Origin: Phyllosticta citribraziliensis
Lineage: Eukaryota
NCBI RefSeq assembly: GCF_038025025.1
Contig: NW_027117341.1
Coordinates: forward strand, 1,178,001-1,242,000
Reading direction: 5' to 3'
Length of the DNA: 64,000 nt
Positions 42,469-54,662 of this stretch are shown piece after piece. The number at the start of each line of letters is the position of its first letter. Position 1 is the first letter of the stretch. The notes below the pieces were generated by a model that was given only the letters and a program-made list of their open reading frames with translations, was not told the DNA's origin and did not search any database. The translations under genes and the position numbers were made by a program.

Positions 42469-43221
42469 GGACCATGGCCTTGCTTTGCTGTCCTTGTGTG
42501 TTGCCCGCCTTTCTTATATCTTGTATTCCACTATATACCCTTATCCTCTTGTTGCATGGCCCTTCCCTTCCGTCAATGTCCGAAGCTCGTCGGTCGATCA
42601 TGGGTTGCGCATATACGTCGCTTGCTGTTGACTTGGCGGGAGCTGAAGTGTCTGTAAGGCCCCAAACTCGAGCCCAGCAAGAACGGCTGGTATACCGACC
42701 TTGTAGCCAACCTATTGTGCGAGTCATTTGAGCTTCTCTCTTGTGCTTTTCTTCTTTATTGTTTGGTTCGAAATCGGATCGCGCGTCTTCTTGCCTCATC
42801 GAAGATGGGGTTCGGGCTTGGCTGGAGCTGCTCAACACCAAGTCAGTCACCTGCGAATAGAGGAGTCTCTCGAGCTTTCTTACCGTCCGGGAGCAATCAA
42901 TGGTTGAAGTGTGCTTGCAAGGCAATGAGCCTGTATAGTTTGTGCAGCACTGCCGGCGAGAAAGAGCTGGCGCTCTGCCCTGGAGTGCCCAGGCGGTTGG
43001 CTCGCAGCGCCCACGCAGCGCCCACGCAGGCGCTTCGGTTGCCCACCGCGTGCCTCCCCTCCGGCTCCCACTCCGCACCGAGGCGGCCTGTGCGCTCGTC
43101 CAAAATAAAACGCGACCACAACCCCGACTCCTCCTCCTCTCCTCTTCACCGACTTCGATCGACTGAACGAACGCCAGCATTGCCCACCGCTAGCAACCGT
43201 TCCTCCATCGAAACCACCACC

Positions 43222-45819
43222 ATGTCCACCGAGACCCCCCTTCCCACGCTGCAGTGGGTCACCTACCTTCTTCTCCTCGCCCTCACCTCCTCTGGGTGCG
43301 GCTGGGTGGTCCTGTCCACGACCCTCGGCCTCATTCGTAGCCCGACGAAGCCTTTCTCCTTCGTCACCATCCTCGGTCCCCTGTTCTCCCCCGGTTTCCT
43401 GTTCTCCCTCGGTGTCTTCTCCAAGCTCGCCTATGACCTCGGCATGGCTTTGGCTTTGTTTTTGCTCCCTCTGGTTCTTGCCCTGCTCGTCGCCCGGGGT
43501 TTCTGCGTCGCCTTCTGGCTTGACTGCAGATTCCCCTTCCGGTTCTCGCCCACCTTCGACGACTCTGCCGCCACCCAGATAAAGGACTTGCGCAATGAGA
43601 CCAGTACTCTTCGCAAGTACTTTAACGAGTACGTCGCCATGCTCGCCAACAAGGTCTGCACCATGGGTCTCGAGCTCCACGCCAAGGAGGTCGCCTTCGA
43701 CCGGTTCCGCCGCGCCAGCACGAAGACCGTCGCCGCCCTCAAGAAGGAGCTCTCCGACGCTCGCAAGCTCGCCAAGGCCGAGAAGCATCGCGCCATCGAA
43801 GCCAGGAAGCGTTACGCTGACTGGAAGGAGATGGAACTCTCGGGCTTGGAGGACGAGCTCGACAAGTACAGGCGTTCCCTGGAAGCTCTTCTTGAAGGTC
43901 GCCCCATGGACGAGGAAATTCTCGGCCGGATCAGTGACAAGTTCTTGTTCGGTGACCGCCTTCGCCTCATGGACTTGACCGACCGCCAGAAGAAGGATAT
44001 CGGCGCCCTTCGGACCCAAATCGACGGCCTCCAGAGGCAACTCGCGGATGCCGCCGTCACCGAGAAGGTTGTCGCCCTGGAACGTTCCCGCCAGCTCGAA
44101 GGCAAGATCACGGATCTCCAGCAGAAGATCCGCCAACTCGAGCACGCCAAGGACGTCTCCGCCGCCGAAATCTCTTTCCTCTCTCGCCAAGTGGCCGCCC
44201 AGGGTACCTTGTCCGACCAGTCTGCTTCCGATTGGGAGTTGCAGTTCGCTGCTGTCGACCACCAACGGAAGCTCGCGGAGTCCAACTCGAGGGATCTCGA
44301 CATCAAGCTGCAGTCTCTTCGTCGCGAGATGGAGAAGGCTGCCGAGTTCCAAGAGGAGGAGCTCTCCCGCGCCCAGGACAAGGCATACCGGTACTCGCAG
44401 GCTATCGACAGGGCTGAGGCCGACCGCGACCAGGCCAAGCAACTCGTCAAGTCTGCCGACCAGGAACGTCGTGCCGCTGTCGCCAGTGCCGACACTCTTC
44501 AGTCCGAGGTCAACTCGTTGACCGAGGAGCTCAAGATCCTCCGCGCCGGCTGCTGCTTGTGCATCTGTCCCTGTTGCCCGGACGGCTGCTCTGCCCACCG
44601 TTTCGGCGCCGCCTCGCCCTCGCCCGTCCCCGTCACCGTCCGTTCGCCCTCGCTCGCCTCGCTCCGCCAGGAGCTTGATCGCCTTCGCTCCGAGAACGAG
44701 ACCCTTCGCCAGCCCGTCCGTTCGCCCTCGCCCTCGCCCGAGCTCGCCTCGCTCCGTCAGGAGCTTGATCGCCTTCGCTCCGAGAACGAGACCCTTCGCC
44801 AGCCCGTCCGTTCGCCCTCGCCCTCGCCCGAGCTCGCCTCGCTCCGTCAGGAGCTTGATCGCCTTCGCTCCGAGAACGAGACCCTCCGTCAGCCTGTCCC
44901 TTCGTCCTCGCCGTCTCCCGAACTCGCCTCGCTGCACCAGGAGCTCACCCGTCTTCGTGGTGAGAACCAGCAGCTGAGCCATGTTCACGGCGAGAACTTG
45001 AGCCTCCGCCAGCAAATCGCTGCCCTCTCGCAAGAGAACACGACGGCTCGGGGGCTCATGGGTCAGGCTGAAGGTCAATGGGCCAGCCTGCAGGACACCA
45101 CTCGCCGCCTGGAAAGTGAGCTTGCCACATCTCGTGAGCAACTCGGCACTGCCCGCCGTGAGCTTGCCGCCTCTCGCGAGGAGGCTACAGCTGCTCGCCA
45201 GGAGGCCAGTTCCGTCGCCGCTCGTGCGGATTTCTTGGCCGAGCAACTCCGCCGCCAGGTCGCTCGCTCCACCGCCTCTCCCGTTGCTGCTCCCTCCGCT
45301 CCCCCGGCCGCCCCTCTCGCTGTCCCTCCCACCGACCAGATGCTCCTTGCCCAGCAGCAGGTCGACCAGTTGACGAGGCGCGCTGAGCAAGCGGAGCAGA
45401 AGCTCCAGGAGACTCTCGACCGCCTGGATGCCGCCAATGCCACCTTGGAGACCTACCGCAACACCCCGGGTGCTCTCTCGTTTGAGGAGCGCAACACCTG
45501 GGCTATGGAGCGTGGTCAGCTCAGTCTTCTGCTCGCAGGTCACGACTCCGAGGTCGCCAGCCTCAAGCGCCAGCTTGAAGATCTCGCCCACCAGCTTCAA
45601 GACAACGAGGCTGAATTGGAGGAGGCCGAAGTCAATCTGGCGAAGCTGGAGGTGGACCACAAGGCCGAGATCGACAACCTGGAAGACATCATCCAGGACT
45701 TCCAGGAGAGAATCGATGACCTCGGCAGCATCGACGACGAGATTGAACAGCTCCGAGAAGAGAACGACGAGCTCAAGGAGGAGTTGAAGGAGTGTTACGA
45801 AACCTTAGGGTTTCAATAA
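43222..45819 (+). CDS. Orphan intronless protein (865 aa): N-terminal hydrophobic/TM segments, long coiled coils, Cys cluster, internal 30-aa repeats
   Basis: CACCATG context and strong C-ending codon bias. About 3 hydrophobic stretches in the first 100 aa, heptad-rich E/L/R/Q regions, GCCLCICPCCPDGC, and an acidic C-terminal coil. The frame is open upstream to 42715. Confidence 0.85.
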   Translation: MSTETPLPTLQWVTYLLLLALTSSGCGWVVLSTTLGLIRSPTKPFSFVTILGPLFSPGFLFSLGVFSKLAYDLGMALALFLLPLVLALLVARGFCVAFWLDCRFPFRFSPTFDDSAATQIKDLRNETSTLRKYFNEYVAMLANKVCTMGLELHAKEVAFDRFRRASTKTVAALKKELSDARKLAKAEKHRAIEARKRYADWKEMELSGLEDELDKYRRSLEALLEGRPMDEEILGRISDKFLFGDRLRLMDLTDRQKKDIGALRTQIDGLQRQLADAAVTEKVVALERSRQLEGKITDLQQKIRQLEHAKDVSAAEISFLSRQVAAQGTLSDQSASDWELQFAAVDHQRKLAESNSRDLDIKLQSLRREMEKAAEFQEEELSRAQDKAYRYSQAIDRAEADRDQAKQLVKSADQERRAAVASADTLQSEVNSLTEELKILRAGCCLCICPCCPDGCSAHRFGAASPSPVPVTVRSPSLASLRQELDRLRSENETLRQPVRSPSPSPELASLRQELDRLRSENETLRQPVRSPSPSPELASLRQELDRLRSENETLRQPVPSSSPSPELASLHQELTRLRGENQQLSHVHGENLSLRQQIAALSQENTTARGLMGQAEGQWASLQDTTRRLESELATSREQLGTARRELAASREEATAARQEASSVAARADFLAEQLRRQVARSTASPVAAPSAPPAAPLAVPPTDQMLLAQQQVDQLTRRAEQAEQKLQETLDRLDAANATLETYRNTPGALSFEERNTWAMERGQLSLLLAGHDSEVASLKRQLEDLAHQLQDNEAELEEAEVNLAKLEVDHKAEIDNLEDIIQDFQERIDDLGSIDDEIEQLREENDELKEELKECYETLGFQ
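44638..44970 (+). repeat. 90-bp in-frame tandem repeat (PVRSPSPSPELASLRQELDRLRSENETLRQ), about 4 copies
   Basis: Near-identical copies start at 44713 and 44803, with a shorter copy before and a diverged copy after. Confidence 0.92.
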
Positions 45820-46036
45820 GCATTTCGCCATCTTCTCTCCCTCTCGTTTCTTCTTGGTTTGTTCTTCTGCCTGGTGCGTCGCAAGGTCGGACGCGACGTA
45901 AAACACGCTTGAGGACCGTCTTTCGACCGGCTTTTTCAGACATTCGGATCGACATTCTTGGATGACCCCAGCATTGCTCCCCTCTAGTGGTCTTCGGACC
46001 GCTGCCCTTCATTCTGGGTTGAGCTTCTTGCCGGCA

Positions 46037-46349
46037 GCAATCCCGTAGCACCCTTTGGGACCCCCGGATTGCATTTCCCTTCCTTGAACGACATCCAGTC
46101 ACGCCCCACGGATCCTCCTTGAGCAGCCTTCATGGCTTGCTTCCGTCCCCGCGAGTGGACGAGCACATCTCGCCTTGCAGTCCGTAGCACCTTTTGGGAC
46201 CCTCGACTGCAAGTTTCCAGCAGCCTATGACACGGCTATAAACTGCCCCAGCCCCAGACGGCCAGCCTTGGCACCGTTCGGTCCTTTGTGCAAGTGGACC
46301 AGCACATCTTGCACCGCAGTCCGTAGCACCCTCCGGGACCCTCGACTGC
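46037..46349 (+). repeat. Three about 139-bp-spaced modules: stem-CGTAGCA-CCY..GGG-ACCCYC-stem
   Basis: CGTAGCA at 46044, 46183 and 46322. Closing stems GCAATCC/GGATTGC, CTTGCAGTC/GACTGCAAG and GCAGTC/GACTGC. Confidence 0.85.
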
Positions 46350-46434
46350 AGAATTCGACAAAGCGCAAGGCAGAAGTTCCGGGGCGTGGTGAGTGGACAC
46401 ACCGCGTCTTTGGCCCCTTCAACGCTCTTTTCCA

Positions 46435-46705
46435 AGTTGTCTTGCGTCAGATAACAAAGCTTCTGAGGGACACTTGCCATCGTTCCTTCAATCCATGGAC
46501 AGGGCACTCGACGGCTTTGGCGGAGCTGTCTTGAGCCTGATGCGGGGTCACTTGTTCCCTGGAGGGCTTGAAAAACCGCGTCCACTGGAGGAACTGGTGA
46601 GTTGTCTTGCGTCAGATAGTGGCGTTACTGAGGGACACTTGATCCAGATTCAGTCCATGAACAAGGCGAACGACAAGCTTTGGCGGAGCTTGTTTTGTAG
46701 CTGAG
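46435..46705 (+). repeat. Two diverged about 105-bp direct repeats, 165 bp apart
   Basis: agttgtcttgcgtcagata..ctgagggacacttg..tccatg..gctttggcggagct at 46435 and 46600. Confidence 0.85.
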
Positions 46706-48282
46706 AATCGAGCAGTCAGTCGGTACCTCGAGGCCTTCCTAAACCATTCTCACGTTCATTGGACCGGACAATCAGCCCCCCGCGGATGGAGCAGCACATT
46801 CCGCACCTTCGGACTTTAGAAATCCGGACTAAACCCCAAAAAAAGATTGAAAGAACGGCAATAACCCACAAAAAACCTTTCCTGTACGGTGCTTTTACTT
46901 CATTCTGTACCTACCAGCGACCTTCTTTCGACTCCACTCAAACCGCAAACCAAAAACCACAAAAACACTTGCAAAGAACGACAAAATTACCCCAAAAACA
47001 TTCTGCGTCTGGCGACCGCTTTACCTGTTGTTCGATAGCACCTGCAGCCATCCTCGTCTCTCTTTTACCGAGGAGCATCGGAACCCGACGAAACAAGACC
47101 TCCCATCAAACAGTGTTCTGGAATCTTGCAAACGCCGCTCTCTACCTTCTGACGAGATCGTGGCAATTCCACTCACTTGGGTCTGTTTCTCGTGGCTTAC
47201 CTCTTCCGACACGGCTGTCACCTTTCACGTTCGTGGTTTACCTTCTGGCAAGCTTTAATACTCTTCCGAGCTTGCGCCTTGCGGTTTTACGACTTTCCTG
47301 CTGCTTTACGCCTGTACCTTTACGACATGGGCTCGCTGGCTGTACTTCTACGGCTTCTACCATACCGTCGACTGCTCCCTTTCTTCGCACCGACGACTCG
47401 GCCGTTCATGCTGGCAACTCCAGGGCTTTCGGGTTACGCCCTTTCTGCACCACGGAACGCTTTCCTCCCTCTGCATCCAGTGTTCCTGTGGCGATTTACA
47501 CGCGCTACGAACCGACACCCGGGCCGCTCTACGCTTGGGAATCTCTTGTGGCTGTTGATTGACATCTTCTTCGACGGCTCTCCCTCGCTGTATGAGCTCC
47601 CACGGTTCTTCATGGCCAATTTACATCCATCGATGGCCCTACTTGCGCCCTTTGTCGGCCTTTTGCTGTGGCAGATTCACAGCAGACGGACTCGTCTCCT
47701 CTCATTCGACGCATACGTCTTGCGAGCTTTCCTGGGTTTTGCTCGCATCCCCCGTTGTTCAATCACTCTTCGAACGACGATAAATCTACGCTTGGTTGTT
47801 GCTCCTACGGTCGTCACATCTGCTCTTCCTTCCCACAATTCTCACATTTCCGAAGACGAAGACGACCTCGACTAGCTCTCTTCTACGTCGACAGGAGCAC
47901 CCATTCTTCCGACGACTTGGTCCATTTTCCCTCGTTGTCTTGCCTGCTTTCTCTTCTCGGCAGGCTCCGAAATTTGACCGTGCTGCTGGTTTCTGGGTTT
48001 CCAGCACCGTGGTTGCGCTGTTCACAGCGTCTGGCTTACTCGTCCTGCTACTCTCCACGGCAGTTGACTTGTGAGCTTCCCTGGGCATTCAAATCTTCTG
48101 GTCGTCTCCCCATTCATCGACGACCGGAGCTCCTCACTCTTCCGGCTTGCTTTCCTTTTCTTGTCAAGCGGGATTCACTCACGACGTGCTGCCTTCTGGG
48201 CTGTACTTGCGGCACGTCATGTCTTCGCGCTCCATCTACCGCGCAAGACTCGTCTGATTACACTCCTCTCATCAGGCGATCA

Positions 48283-49979
48283 CGACCGGTTCAGTCTGGC
48301 TTCTATTCACTGGACTGGTCGCTACTCCAATCTACGACGACCTACACGGGCTTCTTGGTCGTCGGGGCTGCTGCTCGTTTCCTTCAACTTGGCTTTACAC
48401 GCCTGGCATGCAGTGGCTCCTCAACTCTTCTGGGCACTCTCCGCGGCTTTGTCGACGATTCCCTACCTCTTCTACGTCGACGAAGCTGCTACTCCTGCTG
48501 ACCGGTCCATTCAACCTTGCTTTTGCTTCTTTGGACTGGTCGGCTTCACAAATCAGCGACGATCCGGGTGGCTCCCTGGTTGTCTGCTTTGTTTCTGGCC
48601 ACTGCGAGCTTCTGCTTTCACAAACTACCTGGCTGGCTCTCTTTCTCTGGACTTGCTTGCGGCGGGCTCTCCTCTACATGGCGGCTCTGTCGAATCATCT
48701 TCTTCTGCACCCTTTCGACGGAGCTGCCCCTCTGGGCATTCTTTTCGGCTGACCGGTCCATCCAATCTCACTGACTGGTCGGCTTCTCAAATCTGCGACA
48801 AACGGGGTGGCTCCCTGGTTGTCTACTCCACTTCTACCACCGCTCGCTCCTCTCAATGGCTGACAATCTCTTCGGCAAAGCCTGCGGTGGAATCCTCCTT
48901 CAAATCTGGCTCCTCTGGAGCTTTGCGGCTCTGTCAAATCACCTCTTCTCTACGTTTTCGACGGGGCTGCACTCTGGGCATTCTCTTCGGCTGACCGGTC
49001 CATCCAATCTCATTGACTGGTCGGCTACTCAACAATTTGCGACAAACGGGGTGGCTCCCTGATTCTCTACTCCACTTCCAGCCACCGCGCGCTTCTCTAA
49101 ATGGCTGATCTCCTCGGCAACGCCTGCGGTGGCATCGGGCTCCTTCGGGGCCTTGCGGCTCTGTCGAATCATCTTCTCTACCCTTTCGACGGGGCTGCAC
49201 TCTGGGCATTCTCTTCGGCTGATCGGTCCATCCAATCTCACTGACTGGTCGGCTACTCAACAATCTACGACAAACGGGGTGGCTCCCTGATTGTCTACTC
49301 CAATTCCAGCCACCGCGCGCTTCTCTAAATGGCTGATCTCCTCGGCAACGCCTGCGGTGGCATCCTCCTCAACTTCGGGCTCCTTTGGGGACTTGCTGCT
49401 CTGTCAAATCACCTTCTTTTCTACGCTTTTGACAGGGCTGCACTCGGGCATCTCTCTTGCTGACCGGTCCATCAAATCTCACTGTGCTTGCTACATTTTG
49501 GACTGGTCGGCCTTCCACATTGACGACGACCTGGGTGGGCTCCCGGGGCGTCTGCTTCACTTTCGGCCGCTGCTTGCTTTCTACCTCAAAAACACTTGGC
49601 TGATCACCCCTTTGGCCTTGCTTGCAGCGGCCTTCCTCATCAAACGAATGTGTCACTCTGGGCAATTTCCAGCTTACCGGTCCTTCAACTTTCGCTGCTG
49701 CTACAACTTGGACTGGTTGGCTTTACACATCGAAGAAGACCTGGGTGGGCTCCCTTGTCATCTACGCTTTGGCCGCTGCTCGCTTGCAACTTCAACAACA
49801 CGTGGCTGTCATCTCTTTGGCATTGCTTGCGGCGGCCCTTACCCATCAAGCGAATGCTCCTTGGCGGCTTTGTCGATTCCCTCACTTCATCGACGAGGCT
49901 GCTTCACCTGATGCACACCTCGGGGCATTCACAGTGATCGGTTCAGCAAACTGCTGGCGCTACACTTTGAACCGATCAC
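48283..49979 (+). repeat. Tandem array of about 8 diverged 212-263-bp units, each with conserved hairpins
   Basis: Hairpin GCTGACCGGTC..GACTGGTCGGC or variants at 48283, 48497, 48747, 48989, 49217, 49459, 49671 and 49934. Confidence 0.9.
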
Positions 49980-51821
49980 GACACAACTTTACAACGACTT
50001 GGCGGGGCGGCTTCCCTACATCTTCAAGTAAGCCATCAATCACTCTGGGCATACGGCTTACTCGATTCGCAACTTGGATTGTCTCCCAAGCTGCCAAGAG
50101 CTCTCTCCTTTCGAACACCCACCAAACAAAGAGTGTTCTTCCCCTTCTCTGTGGAGCTCAGCCGCTCAGCCAAGTCGACCACCTTTCATTCCACTTCAGC
50201 AACTCGGTCACTCGACCAAGTTGTTTCCCTTTTGCTTTTTTGTTTTGCTTTTTCGTTTTTGCTTTCTCTCACAACCCTGGATGAACCCTGGATGGATGCC
50301 GGCTCCTTACCACCACAACTGCTGCTTTCCGAGGACGACAATGGCTTCTCCCAATGACCGCCAACAAAACAACCCGTCCTTGGAACCGGAGCCTAGCAAA
50401 TCTCAGCCGGACTGTAGACTTCTCTGGCAATATGATCCGCCAGATCAGGTTGGTTACTTTCTGCTTCAACATTTTCTCTTCAAACACTCTCGAAGCCTTG
50501 CCGGCCTAACCACTACTGCTACTGCTACTGCCGCTGCTACTACGAAAGATCCAACCAAGCCGAAGCTACAACCACTACCGGCTGGCCCATTATCAAACAA
50601 CTTTCCGCGGTCTTCCAAGACTTCGACTCCAAACAACCGGGCTGGCCGGCCGGCACAAACATCTCCCACTCCACGCGCTCCTCCGCGTCAAGAACACCCC
50701 TCCTCGCTCAAGCTTGTCATCCTCCGCTGTAGATTCTCCACATTCAATCGTTCGGCCGTCAAAAGGACAAGGTGCAAAAGCGCCTACTTCAATCTTCCCC
50801 GAACAGAGTCTCTTCCAGCACGACGAGCAGCGAACCCCCTCCGCGACGTGGTCAAAAGCTCCAACTACAAACAACCGAGCTAGCCGGCACAAACATCCAT
50901 CAATCCATTCATCCATCCATCCATCCATCCAGGGTTCAACGCAAAGCTGGCAGCCTCCAGGCCAGCATACGAGATGGTCAACCCTCAAAAGTAAGCTTCG
51001 CCCTGGAAAAGCTCATCGTCTTGAACCTTGCTAACCACTTGTACGACAGAACAAACTACGCGACCATCTCACGAACAACCCATACAGGGAGTGTTCACGG
51101 CCACTACAAAAGACCCTCAAAGCTTCGCGCTCTCGGCTTTTGCATCCGCCAAATACCAACATGGTGGCAAGCTGGTCGCCCCCAAAACGTAAGTCCTACG
51201 GTCCCTACGCCCCCAATTCGAAGTCGCATGCTAACACATTACACCACAGAATCATTAACACAACACCTTCACCAACAACAGCCATACTCAGCCAAAGCAG
51301 CCCTTCCACACACCACGGTCCACCAGTCCTTCTCGCACCCCCACCCGCCGACGCGGCGGCTTAGCAGCCTAGGGACGTCTGAGGGTTACCTCCACCCGAA
51401 AGGCAAGCTCGCCAATGCTGACGCGGGAGGGTGTGGGCGGGGCTGCGTGGCCGTGATGAGCAGGCGGCTTTCGCGCGCTTCGTGTTGCGGCTTGAGGTGA
51501 CCCTCGTCGTGCTCGGTCAAAGCGTTGCGTGCCGTCTGCTGCTGTGGCGGGGTTTGTGTATGGGCGCGGTGGGCTGGCGTTGGGTGCGAGGCCGGGGCGA
51601 CCACGGACGGCGCGGGACGTTGGACAATGGCATCGTTCACAGACACTTGAACACAAACAAAACGAGCCTTGTTCGACGGCGCCAGTCCACTCCACAAACA
51701 TCAAAAACATCAAAAAAGAAAGAAAAAACAAAGCCAAAAAGGCAAAGAAAAAACTCTCAACCCACGTCAAACACCAACACCAACATCACAAGCACACAAA
51801 CACAAACCGCACGCGCGCAAA

Positions 51822-51975
51822 ACCCAACTACATCACCTGAACGCAGAGTCAGTGATGGCCGGACCGAACGACGGCTCCGCCTTTGCGCGCGCGCACGCAA
51901 GACCCCAACTACATCATCGGGCGCAGAACCGGTGATGGACGGACCGAACGACGGTACCGCTTCTTGCGTGCACGC
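51822..51975 (+). repeat. Two 80-bp tandem direct repeats with a covarying hairpin
   Basis: cccaactacatca..gcaga..gtgatgg(c/a)cggaccgaacgacgg at about 51823 and 51904. Confidence 0.85.
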
Positions 51976-52074
51976 GGGCTGTGCTTGCTGATTGACTGAC
52001 TGGGTTGAGTGGGAAATTTGAGGAGGATAGTGGAGGGGGAGGGGCGGGGGAAGGAGAGGGGGATTTGGTGTCCG

Positions 52075-52395
52075 AAACTCTACATTCTACACTCTACACT
52101 ACACTCTACACTCGACTCTACACACTCGACTCAAACGACCACTCTACCAACAACGACAATTCAACCGACTCTACCACCCGACACAACCAACCAACCGACC
52201 GTCGCGACTCGCTGTCTCCGCCAACAACCAACTCTCTCAAATCGAATCAACTCAACCCACCATGTCGACAATCCAACACTCCAACACTGCAACACTCCAA
52301 CAATCCAACAATCCAATAACCCGACACCCCGACACTCCGACACAGACAGCGAGTCCGACGACACCAAACCAAACAAACAAAAAACAAAAAATAGA
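52075..52395 (+). repeat. A/C-rich low-complexity tract (ACTCTAC and CCAACA repeats)
   Basis: Read directly; very G-poor on the + strand. Confidence 0.8.
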
Positions 52396-53291
52396 AGGGC
52401 AGCCGGCCCCAGCGACGGGACCGAAATTCAGGCACAAAGCTTCAGCTTCAGCTTCAACTTCAACTTGACACGGAAGCGGTGGAGGGCATGACGGGCACGG
52501 CAGGGCAAGGCAGAATAAGGCAGGATAAGGCAGGATGAGCCTGACGGGCTGGAGCGAGACACGAGTGGCATCGAGGAGCATTTGATGAGAATGTCCCGGT
52601 GCGGAGCGGTTCAGGGTGAAGGGGCAGGACAAGCCTGGATGATTCAAGCGCGAGAGCGGAGTGGAGTTGAATGAAGAATTAACGACGCGTTTCTACCATT
52701 TCTGGTGCTGCTAGAGCTGTGAGAAGGGTACTTGGTGCTGTGTAGAAGAAATTCGCGATCTGCCTCCCATCCTTTTCTGCCACCATTGCACGTGACGAGT
52801 CCCTGAGAGTATCTTGACGGACAACTTTTACTTCAAGGCCGGACCATTTGGATGTATGAGAATCATGGCACTGGAGGTTTGGAAAGTATCATTGACCGTG
52901 ACGTGATTGAAGCTAAGTTTGATCAACGTGAAGCAAAATTGACCACATTTCCTAACTTCGTCCCTTTCCACGGCGTCACCACAGCGTTTGACTACCACCC
53001 TCTGAAAGCAAGATGTAACCTTAGATCTGACTCCCTTGTATGCGTAATTTGTTGGAATGCGCGTAGAAACCCGTCAAACACCGGTTGCGATTTGTCATGA
53101 ATGTCAAAGCAATCACACGAGCCAGTCATCACGATTCGATCGTGATGTGAACTGGGTACAGAGCAAGAAAGAAAACAGGAATAAGTCTTTTGAGGCGAAG
53201 ACTGATCTGCAGTCAATTGGACTTGTGATCGGAGGTCTGTCGAAGTCATCAGCGGAGAACATATGAAAAGCGCACGCTGGCTTACAAAGGT

Positions 53292-54374
53292 TTAGTCCTT
53301 GGGCTCCGTCTTTATTGAGACTTCCGCATTTTGTCTCTTGTCGCTGGGGTGAGAATGTGGCTGCTGATCTTCAGCATCTGTAAGGGAACTTGGGCCGTGC
53401 TTGAAGGACTCTAAAGTGCCATGGACTTTCGTAAATTCGTACAGTGAGAAGTATCCAGTGGGTTGGTTGAGCGGTTGCTCGGAATCATCGCATGTGTTGT
53501 TGCTTCCACGATTGCCATTGCCATTGTAGTCATCTTTGATTTGATAGTGACTCTCCTCCCGCCGACTTGTGAATGTGTTCTTTCTCTTGTGTCCAACATG
53601 TAGCTCGCTCTCTTCAGTAGACTTGTCGTGCTGCACTCCTCTTTGGAAAGCAGACGACTGTGCTTGTTTGAGCTCGGATACCTTGGATTCAAGCGTCTGT
53701 ATCCTCTGATCTTTTCCCTCCAGCGAGGCCTCGTGTGCGAGATTCTTCCGTTGCACAAAGGCCTCAAACCGGTTGTCCTTTTCGCGGAGAGCACTTTCGG
53801 ATGTTTCCTGTGCAGTCCGAAGGTCTTTGATGACTGCCGACGTTGAGCTGAGAGAGTTCTCGTAATTTTTGACTTGGTGTTGTAGCGCTTGTATTGCTTG
53901 GTCTTTCCGTTGGATGTTGTCATGAAGCTGCTTTGTTGCGGAGTCCAGCGTAACGATTGTAGGCATTACAGCGTAGATGGCGCTGCCAACACTTGGTCCC
54001 GTCAGGGGCACCAACGACGAGTCAATCCGAAAATACCCCAATCTCTCAAGCTCAGTCAAAAGTCCATCATAAATGACCGCAAAAGCCTCTTCGCGCCCTA
54101 GATTTCTAAAATCCGGCAATGAAAAGCGACCAGGCTCCAGAAGCTTGCGGAAGAAGCGATCTGCGGCGCCCGTGTTGTGGAAAGCTTTGGGGCGTTGAGC
54201 TACCGGGAGTTGCGAGTCGATCGTGGCTAGAGCCCGGCCTCTGTAGGCTTTTTTGACGCCTGTGCGTGTTAGGGGAGGTATGGGTGAAGGCTGGAGGAGA
54301 AGGGTACCTTGGAAGAAGCTGATGCTGGCGTTTCCTGAGAAGGAAGCCGGGACGTAGCCGTCGCGAATTGCCAT
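53292..54374 (-). CDS. Hypothetical coiled-coil protein
   Basis: Long ORF from MAIRDGYVP with a probable 48-nt in-frame intron (GTACCC..CTAAC..CAG). Coiled-coil segment KQLHDNIQRKDQAIQALQ..KDQRIQTLESKVSELKQ. True start uncertain. Confidence 0.65.
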   Translation of the reverse strand: MAIRDGYVPASFSGNASISFFQGTLLLQPSPIPPLTRTGVKKAYRGRALATIDSQLPVAQRPKAFHNTGAADRFFRKLLEPGRFSLPDFRNLGREEAFAVIYDGLLTELERLGYFRIDSSLVPLTGPSVGSAIYAVMPTIVTLDSATKQLHDNIQRKDQAIQALQHQVKNYENSLSSTSAVIKDLRTAQETSESALREKDNRFEAFVQRKNLAHEASLEGKDQRIQTLESKVSELKQAQSSAFQRGVQHDKSTEESELHVGHKRKNTFTSRREESHYQIKDDYNGNGNRGSNNTCDDSEQPLNQPTGYFSLYEFTKVHGTLESFKHGPSSLTDAEDQQPHSHPSDKRQNAEVSIKTEPKD

Positions 54375-54389
54375 GATGCAGTGGCCTTG

Positions 54390-54662
54390 CAGCAGACCGA
54401 GCGGGCAAGAGACCCGAAGGCGAGAGACGTGCACGTCGTGCCAGGCTTCAGAGCGGGAAATTGGAGCAATAATCGTGCACGACAGGCCTCAGAGCGAGAG
54501 ACTTGAGCGAAAGACCTGAGGGGGACGTGGCAAGAAATGTTCGCAGCGGCCTTGAGGCAGACTGAGCGGGCAAGAGACCTGAAGGCGAGAGACGTGCGCG
54601 TCGTGCCAGGCCTCAGAGCAGGAGAATTGAGAGGCAGCCTTGAGGGAGACGTGCAAGAGATG
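54390..54662. repeat. Diverged direct repeats about 164 bp apart
   Basis: gcagac(c/t)gagcgggcaagagacc(c/t)gaaggcgagagacgtgc(a/g)cgtcgtgccaggc at about 54393 and 54557, plus gaggg(g/a)gacgtg..caaga..atgt at about 54518 and 54642. Confidence 0.85.

Follow-up and report, generated by a model that had tools for sequence, protein, structure and literature searches.

Few structured cis-acting RNA elements are, to our knowledge, known in filamentous-fungal mRNAs. The window analysed here, a stretch of 64,000 nucleotides of Phyllosticta citribraziliensis DNA, contains downstream of a coiled-coil protein gene a small array of repeated sequences that can be folded into hairpins and, in two places, into a candidate pseudoknot. 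The question raised by this locus is what the array represents: RNA structures kept by selection, and then of which kind, or hairpin-prone DNA that was neutrally duplicated in tandem and has no RNA function, the covariation having come about by chance, gene conversion or palindrome maintenance and the copy number drifting. Invariant unpaired residues on covarying helices point to selected RNA structure. We tentatively prefer to read the repeats as a few related RNA modules under selection on the + strand, located in a long 3' untranslated region or in an adjoining downstream non-coding transcript and likely forming a protein-docking array; the neutral account we consider rather unlikely. The structural evidence consists of two to three paralogous copies at one locus and of its close relatives, and such a small number of copies, confined to a single locus, is a point in favour of neutral duplication.

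The upstream gene and its surroundings

The array is preceded by a single protein-coding gene on the same strand:

43222..45819, + strand: coding sequence of a membrane-anchored coiled-coil protein of 865 amino acids, with its TAA stop codon at 45817-45819

This coding sequence is enclosed in an open reading frame spanning 42715-45819, residues 170-1034 of which correspond to database protein P0002 (865 amino acids) with 100% identity and coverage. Only one outside relative was found for it, a hypothetical Phyllosticta paracitricarpa protein with 48% identity. A Pfam search with the coiled-coil protein gave weak coiled-coil matches below the cut-off and nothing else. The RNA modules sit 3' of the gene, at the start of a gene-free stretch of 7.5 kb that separates two convergent genes, the next convincing gene being located at 53292-54434 on the opposite strand. 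Further tandem repeat families crowd the 7.5 kb around the array, as might be expected if the modules were neutral repeats as well. The GC content of the window is 50-65%, and intron-like GT...AG segments are present, as in the nuclear genome of a filamentous fungus.

In an earlier note on this DNA, the array was placed just downstream of the stop codon. It is indeed downstream, but "just" is a loose description: the distance from the stop codon is 166 nt for the first hairpin, which has a UUCG loop, 218 nt for the first internal-loop hairpin and 325 nt for the first candidate pseudoknot. No Pfam match was obtained for the open reading frames overlapping the modules, nor for long + strand open reading frames up to 51.5 kb. 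The repeat period of 139 nt is not a multiple of three, so a reading frame cannot be kept across the units.

Architecture of the array

The elements of the array and its vicinity are the following, where S1 and S2 are the two candidate pseudoknot helices and L1 and L3 are loops:

45985..46004, + strand: UUCG-loop hairpin of 8 bp, UAGUGGUC-UUCG-GACCGCUG, present in the MFE and centroid folds
46037..46072, + strand: internal-loop hairpin, copy 1, GCAAUCC / CGUAGCA / CCC-UUU-GGG / ACCCCC / GGAUUGC
46122..46137, + strand: spacer hairpin of unit 1, AGCAGCC...GGCU, a weakly supported predicted fold
46144..46173, + strand: candidate pseudoknot, copy A, S1 CGUCC/GGACG, L1 CC, S2 GCGAG/CUCGC, junction U, L3 AGCACAU
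46174..46213, + strand: internal-loop hairpin, copy 2, CUUGCAGUC / CGUAGCA / CCU-UUU-GGG / ACCCUC / GACUGCAAG, present in the MFE and centroid folds
46280..46314, + strand: candidate pseudoknot, copy B, S1 GGUCC/GGACC, L1 UUU, S2 GUGCAAG/CUUGCAC, junction U, L3 AGCACAU
46315..46351, + strand: internal-loop hairpin, copy 3, (C)GCAGUC / CGUAGCA / CCC-UCC-GGG / ACCCUC / GACUGC(AG)
46782..46804, + strand: third AGCACAU hairpin, GCGGA-UGGAGCAGCACAU-UCCGC, S2 only

Copies A and B, the internal-loop element that follows each of them, its third copy at 46037-46072 and the cUUCGg hairpin had all been described in the earlier note, and each was recovered from the sequence as quoted there. The third AGCACAU hairpin had been missed.

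The core of the repeat, CCGTAGCACC-N4-GGGACCCNCG, occurs three times, starting at 46043, 46182 and 46321, with a spacing of exactly 139 + 139 nt. Units 2 and 3 have a 61-nt block in common (85% identity), and a blastn comparison within 45800-47000 recovered the same repeat pairs and no others. Aligned in register, the units have 88-92% identity over the 24-nt core but only 21-38% over the other 77 nt; ungapped 77-mers of the region have a background identity of 25%, with a 99th percentile of 38%. The pseudoknot-and-stem part of unit 2 is 71% identical to that of unit 3. With this difference between core and spacer, the units do not form a uniform tandem repeat. It looks like an old tandem duplication in which the spacers drifted to near-randomness and the cores were retained. 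Such uneven identity fits selection on the cores and is not expected of neutral decay.

In copies A and B, no linker separates S2 from the stem that closes the following hairpin, and each full module is therefore a single uninterrupted domain of about 70 nt. The half-modules also stand alone, as internal-loop hairpin copy 1 and as the third AGCACAU hairpin. The AGCAC string, present in both halves, is found seven times in 1086 nt here versus 88 times in the whole 64,000-nt + strand, the local copies not being independent of each other. The spacer hairpin of unit 1 has a counterpart in unit 2 at another offset (46219-46237), the AGCAGCC string starting at 46122 and 46219. A 14-nt inverted pair at 45864/46363, 86% complementary, flanks the array; this is about what is expected by chance.

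The internal-loop hairpin

In the internal-loop hairpin, a closing stem encloses the invariant CGUAGCA strand on one side and ACCCYC on the other, with a mini-hairpin at the top. An ungapped three-way alignment shows that five of the seven closing-stem pairs are altered on both sides: at five pairs, both residues of copy 1 differ from those of copies 2 and 3, and the strands are still complementary. Standard pairs are formed in 29 of 30 cells, a share that falls to 17-40% if the 3' strand is shifted by one to three columns, and the observed score was reached by two of 500 shuffles. The mini-stem of three base pairs is invariant, apart from one C-G to U.G change in copy 2. Copy 3 contains one C.A mismatch, which would read G.U on the - strand. 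A covariance model built for this hairpin (R1) scored copy 1 at 55.7 bits, copy 1 being a training sequence.

The AGCACAU hairpin and a candidate pseudoknot

The S2 helix presents a loop of 13 nt, U-GGA-NN-AGCACAU, which is the same in all three copies. The invariance of the AGCACAU linker, noted before for copies A and B, thus extends to the hairpin at 46782-46804. Three of the five S2 pairs are altered on both sides among the three copies, and all 15 cells are paired; a slid partner strand pairs in 31-53% of cells, and the score was reached by 18 of 500 shuffles. The corresponding covariance model (R2) gave 46.2 bits for the third copy, again for a training sequence. Taken over both hairpins, eight stem pairs have changed on both sides with complementarity kept, an observation that argues against neutral repeats.

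In copies A and B, the strands are interleaved in the order S1a-S2a-S1b-S2b, with 5+5 and 5+7 Watson-Crick pairs, respectively. Mechanisms that maintain DNA palindromes do not explain such interleaving, which is a further point against the neutral account. The covariation from C-G to G-C in S1 and from G-C to A-U in S2, on which the earlier note had relied, is real. S1 is present in copies A and B only, and one of its five pairs is compensatory (C-G to G-C); this was counted by eye, as MAFFT misregistered the 5' strands of S1. The GUCC string is retained in the otherwise diverged 5' flank of both copies. The third hairpin lacks an upstream S1 partner for its GGAGC, as well as a downstream CGUAGCA hairpin.

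Folded as separate hairpins, S1 has energies of -6.7 (copy A) and -8.4 kcal/mol (copy B), and S2 of -5.4 and -7.6 kcal/mol, respectively. The two helices are thus similarly stable and would have to form a pseudoknot or alternate with each other. In the nested MFE fold of all three copies, S2 gains two UG/CA pairs within the loop, making use of loop residue G14, and this fold competes with S1; the energies were calculated with ViennaRNA, which has pseudoknots outside its model. The loop lengths of 2-3, 1 and 7 nt are fine for an H-type pseudoknot with helices of 5 and 5-7 bp. An H-type pseudoknot formed by S1 and S2, as the earlier note had proposed, is therefore plausible in view of the interleaved Watson-Crick strands but weakly supported, since S1, with its single compensatory pair, is found in two copies and missing from the third.

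Fold energy and strand

Taken as a whole, the 391-nt stretch at 45975-46365 folds no better than its shuffles (z = -1.13 for the + strand and -0.45 for the - strand), which is in line with neutral repeats. The structural signal comes from the local comparison of copies and not from thermodynamics. G.U wobbles that are possible on the + strand only occur in the UUCG hairpin (two), in the mini-stem of internal-loop hairpin copy 2 (one) and in a neighbouring repeat hairpin family. This strand-specificity speaks against repeats maintained as DNA. The + strand is the sense strand of the upstream coiled-coil gene; we infer that the stretch is transcribed and that + is the active strand.

Variation in close relatives

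Nine public runs contain parts of the stretch, with a best word share of 0.47. Four of these, all in the form of contigs, were compared. In the run designated X4, one contig extends across 45718-46771 (1054 nt), with 37 differences (about 3.5%) and no gaps. None of the 33 listed differences of these 37 falls within the 178 nt of the modules (P=0.002); if all four unlisted differences were in modules, the value would become P=0.23, and to this extent the test is not robust against the neutral account. Three of the 33 listed differences (37 in total) are located in 46031-46365, where 10.5 are expected (P=0.002). A conserved coding exon at 46495-46597 (34 codons), followed by a GTGAGT...TAG intron at 46598-46700, was also considered and rejected, five of six X4 differences being amino-acid-changing in a manual codon count.

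The run designated X1 represents a more diverged haplotype, with at least two in-module variant sites among the differences listed. A G is inserted behind 46150, in L1 of copy A (in one haplotype); this G can pair with C46174, leading to a longer S2. A T is found at 46333 and 46334, in the apical loop of internal-loop hairpin copy 3. All in-module X1 variants listed are at predicted unpaired places, and the listed variants in the relatives all avoid paired and invariant positions, which would not be anticipated for neutral repeats. The UUCG tetraloop itself is not conserved: 45993 is a C instead of a T in X1 as well as in X4.

In a minor X1 contig, 46073 is directly followed by 46289, so that the 215 nt of 46074-46288 are missing. 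Array length is therefore variable, as is the case for tandem repeats and in agreement with neutral duplication. Peaks in X1 depth were examined as possible extra genomic copies and discarded, as they are overlaps of adjacent short contigs (45998-46025, around 46150-46180 and 46792-46800). Adapter sequence flanks one fragment only, 46088-46223, represented by a lone contig in a third run, X2, for which the library type is not stated. None of the runs listed is recorded as RNA, and the run guessed to be RNA has three short contigs here and no more.

Searches for known families and further copies

The earlier note had suggested a search of Rfam for a known class. A scan of the whole 64 kb against Rfam 15 yielded nothing that reached gathering score. 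With E<=10, four chance-level hits far below gathering were obtained over 45800-47000 (CRISPR-DR45, Afu_513, Glutamine and SMAD5-AS1_2), with no ribozyme or xrRNA family among them. Afu_513, a fungal C/D snoRNA, matches 46491-46590 with 17 bits versus a gathering score of 48 (E=0.53), without intact C and D boxes. The Glutamine riboswitch hit is on the minus strand at 46116-46162, with 14 bits versus a gathering score of 35 (E=9.9).

When the two covariance models were run over the 64 kb with filters off, only the training copies were found, the next best hits scoring 11.6 (R1) and 12 bits (R2). With regard to a mobile repeat of the MITE or SINE kind, the element is not densely dispersed within the 64 kb. 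Metagenome contigs contained two motif loci, bacterial-looking and without the closing stem, and a scan of prokaryote genomes gave one motif locus with a 4-bp chance stem. Viral contigs contained three hairpin-core loci, chance matches without stems, and 87 stretches with the loop motif; in those scored, the flanks were complementary over 4 bp or fewer, and no S1 partner was present. These three collections are poor in fungi, and the scans say little on fungal relatives.

Literature searches with the exact motif strings returned microRNA and coronavirus papers only. The main text, as far as accessible, of fungal structured-RNA surveys and xrRNA papers contained no matching motif, and in the fungal structured-RNA literature searched, likewise in part, no tandem array of pseudoknots and internal-loop hairpins was found. 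A likeness of GUAGCAC to a dianthovirus xrRNA was pursued and dropped, the string being absent from the text of the preprint.

A proposed function and its alternatives

We read the modules as lineage-restricted and as probably constituting a protein-binding array. Tandem duplication with a period of 139 nt would have created them, after which the spacers may have drifted while cores and pairing were kept. In a full module of about 70 nt, the S2 hairpin (5-7 bp) would present the 13-nt U-GGA-NN-AGCACAU loop, and in two copies GGACN of this loop may also pair with the upstream NGUCC strand (S1), resulting in an H-type pseudoknot. Directly after S2, a predicted stem of 7-9 bp would enclose the asymmetric CGUAGCA / ACCCYC internal loop and the 3-bp mini-hairpin. 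The helices could in this way display AGCAC-containing unpaired motifs at fixed spacing, providing repeated docking sites for an RNA-binding protein. A protein of this kind, specific for both sequence and shape, would set transcript stability, localisation or translation. S1 may either fix the loop in a pseudoknot or alternate with S2 in a switch between two states, in both cases modulating access to the loop; simultaneous pairing of S1 and S2, like the binding of a protein, is put forward here from sequence considerations. That half-modules occur on their own is more easily reconciled with independent binding sites than with one catalytic or ligand-binding core.

If functional, the array would offer a natural and compact case of a multivalent RNA scaffold within a fungal 3' untranslated region, in which the invariant loop residues are clear targets for mutagenesis and protein pull-down. 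A bolder version, which we regard as distinctly unlikely, is that the 70-nt domain belongs to a new class of nuclear-encoded functional RNA, either a decay-resistant fungal xrRNA or an S1/S2 switch operated by a ligand or protein, within a multi-kilobase non-coding transcript made up of repeated hairpin families (45.8-52.5 kb). Were the modules to block exonucleases or sense ligands, mechanisms known mainly from RNA viruses or bacteria would be extended to a fungal nuclear gene.

The earlier note had seen in the array the signature of a ribozyme, an aptamer or an exonuclease-resistant RNA. The invariant unpaired residues on covarying helices stand, but neither Rfam nor the tests of the respective cores support any of these classes. 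By analogy with flaviviral 3' untranslated regions, xrRNA-like modules might stall Xrn1 in 5'-to-3' decay and leave stable RNAs derived from the 3' untranslated region, their duplication ensuring robustness. The compact, duplicated pseudoknot and hairpin domains and their 3' untranslated-like position would accord with this, as would the second hairpin of unit 2 after a spacer of 8 nt. A plain H-type pseudoknot alone does not form a ring around the RNA's 5' end, as known from structural work on xrRNAs, and copies A and B would, by inference, be no exception. Considering also the lack of any kind of Rfam match and the single contig that represents the sole adapter-flanked fragment, we judge stalling of Xrn1 improbable.

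Somewhat less probable still is that the module controls 3'-end formation or transcript stability, either as a self-cleaving ribozyme or, in the form of a tandem riboswitch, as a ligand-binding aptamer. Invariant unpaired nucleotides in internal and pseudoknot loops on covarying helices are typical of such cores, and some aptamer classes are known to be arranged in tandem. Against this, no Rfam family was found, the small ribozymes twister, pistol, hatchet and hairpin included, the only riboswitch hit being the Glutamine one on the minus strand, and the half-modules occur separately, so the two halves are not obligate parts of a single core. The upstream gene offers no metabolic clue for an aptamer. 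The hammerhead misfit pointed out in the earlier note is borne out by the absence of CUGANGA from either strand and of GAAA from the + strand (45975-46365). The same is true for HDV, the nested double pseudoknot of which is incompatible with the single nucleotide between S2a and S1b, leaving no room for P3/L3. An array of independent small RNA genes, be it a tandem snoRNA-like cluster or an array of processed small RNAs, is highly improbable: the 139-nt period is within the snoRNA size range and the weak Afu_513 match lies 140 nt downstream, but that match has no intact boxes, RUGAUGA, UGAUG and CUGA are missing from both strands of 45975-46365 and ANANNA from its + strand, the pocket of 7+6 nt has an upper stem of 3 bp and, where such a box would be expected, neither ACA nor H, and no T-runs of four or more follow the units, so a reading with pol III terminators was rejected.

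Comparison with known systems

The strands of copies A and B follow each other in the same order as in classical H-type pseudoknots, small pseudoknot aptamers among them (S1a-L1-S2a-L2-S1b-L3-S2b). Their dimensions are also similar, with helices of 5 and 5-7 bp, an L1 of 2-3 nt, a junction of 1 nt and an A/C-rich L3 of 7 nt. Like the H-type pseudoknots of viral 3' untranslated regions, the copies are arrayed in tandem and would be in a 3'-untranslated position. They are unlike frameshift and readthrough pseudoknots in being located at least 325 nt past the stop codon. They match no Rfam pseudoknot family, and their S1 has one compensatory pair and is missing in one of three AGCACAU hairpins.

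Coremin xrRNA-C, as described in the part of PMC10520033 available to us, occurs in plant and fungal RNA viruses and is built from hp1 (4 bp, with YGAD or YGNNAD as its loop), hp2 and, between the two, a conserved spacer of 8-10 nt. Internal-loop hairpin copies 2 and 3 resemble hp1 in that their stem closes with GUC...GAC and the enclosed strand starts with CG, a likeness that favours an xrRNA (PMC10520033, same part). The second hairpin of unit 2, which follows after 8 nt, is also reminiscent of coremin. In place of the 4-8-nt YGAD/YGNNAD loop there is, however, a 22-nt segment with its own mini-hairpin and C as its last residue. The spacers are unrelated among the units, the second hairpin following after 8 nt in unit 2 versus about 50 nt in unit 1. 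The coremin host is an RNA virus, whereas the modules are in cellular DNA. The loop, the conserved spacer and the regularly placed hp2 that define coremin xrRNA-C in this part of PMC10520033 are thus absent from the modules, which argues against an xrRNA of this type.

With the tandem xrRNAs and dumbbells of flaviviruses, and with the tandem pseudoknot domains of plant-virus 3' untranslated regions, the modules share the duplication of pseudoknot modules and conserved unpaired residues on variable helices, as far as these elements are covered by the sources at hand. Unlike the flaviviral elements, they have no three-way junction, no Rfam match and a fungal nuclear locus; the likeness is conceptual. 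Closer in host are the structured motifs of Pezizomycotina 3' untranslated regions, which are about 50-170 nt long and were defined by covariation, with a function that is not known (PMC8216456 and PMC5640933, in the parts accessible to us). These are found with other genes: those for thioredoxin, a RING finger protein, a thioesterase, GLY1, MET13 and ribosomal proteins. The word "pseudoknot" does not occur in the accessible text of PMC8216456 and occurs twice in that of PMC5640933, the one instance consulted concerning HDV; "tandem" occurs in neither. The P. citribraziliensis modules are like the motifs described in the accessible parts of these two papers in being fungal, structured and, as we presume for the modules, associated with an mRNA.

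Length variation of the array

The array of three CGUAGCA internal-loop hairpins varies in length among relatives. In a minor contig (depth 10.8) from X1, a public sequencing run whose contigs carry a more diverged haplotype, position 46073 is fused to 46289; the 215 nucleotides skipped amount to the loss of one array unit. In another haplotype the sequence near 46231-46244 is replaced. From these two observations together we conclude that the length of the array is polymorphic.

Repeats in the surrounding sequence

The stretch from 45820 to 53291 separates two convergent genes by 7.5 kb. Its forward strand is rich in C (31%, with G at 23%), and it contains several tandem-repeat families that are mutually unrelated. 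A Pfam search of eight long forward-strand reading frames within it returned no families. The stretch may be a single long, modular non-coding transcript, or else a decayed element.

A second repeat family, with a spacing of about 165 nucleotides, adjoins the array on its 3' side (46430-46700). Positions 46435-46476 and 46600-46641 form one such pair and are 83% identical. The family also carries a hairpin whose UUGGCGG loop is invariant, present in two copies:

46510-46530, first copy, stem GACGGCU/AGCUGUC
46673-46693, second copy, stem ACAAGCU/AGCUUGU

By an eye count only, the stems differ between the copies at four of seven positions with pairing kept, one pair being G.U.

Further downstream, the TTTAC pentamer occurs eight times in 711 nucleotides of the forward strand (46990-47700), frequently in the form G-N-TTTAC, compared with 35 times on that strand over the entire 64 kb. 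At 48490-49730, units of 228-243 nucleotides are arranged in tandem (TRF period 228, 3.4 copies, 85% matches). All five copies folded contain a hairpin of 12-13 base pairs (GCUGACCGGUC...GACUGGUCGGC) that includes G.U wobbles, pairs possible on the forward strand only; a C-to-U change in one copy preserves pairing as U.G. Upstream of the array, the coiled-coil gene itself contains an in-frame 90-nucleotide tandem repeat (44644-44945; 3.4 copies, 93% matches), encoding a repeated 30-residue peptide.

A small reading frame and a weak snoRNA match

A frame of 34 codons with an ATG start runs from 46495 to a GTGAGT 5' splice-like site at 46598, with a TAG 3' site downstream at 46700. In the relative represented by X4 (about 3.5% diverged), five of the six differences in 46495-46597 would change the amino acid, with codons counted by hand; therefore this frame is unlikely to encode a conserved small protein. 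Afu_513, a C/D snoRNA family of Aspergillus fumigatus, is weakly matched at 46491-46590 (17 bits against a gathering threshold of 48, E = 0.53), with degenerate C and D boxes, and the match is probably due to chance or to a decayed copy.
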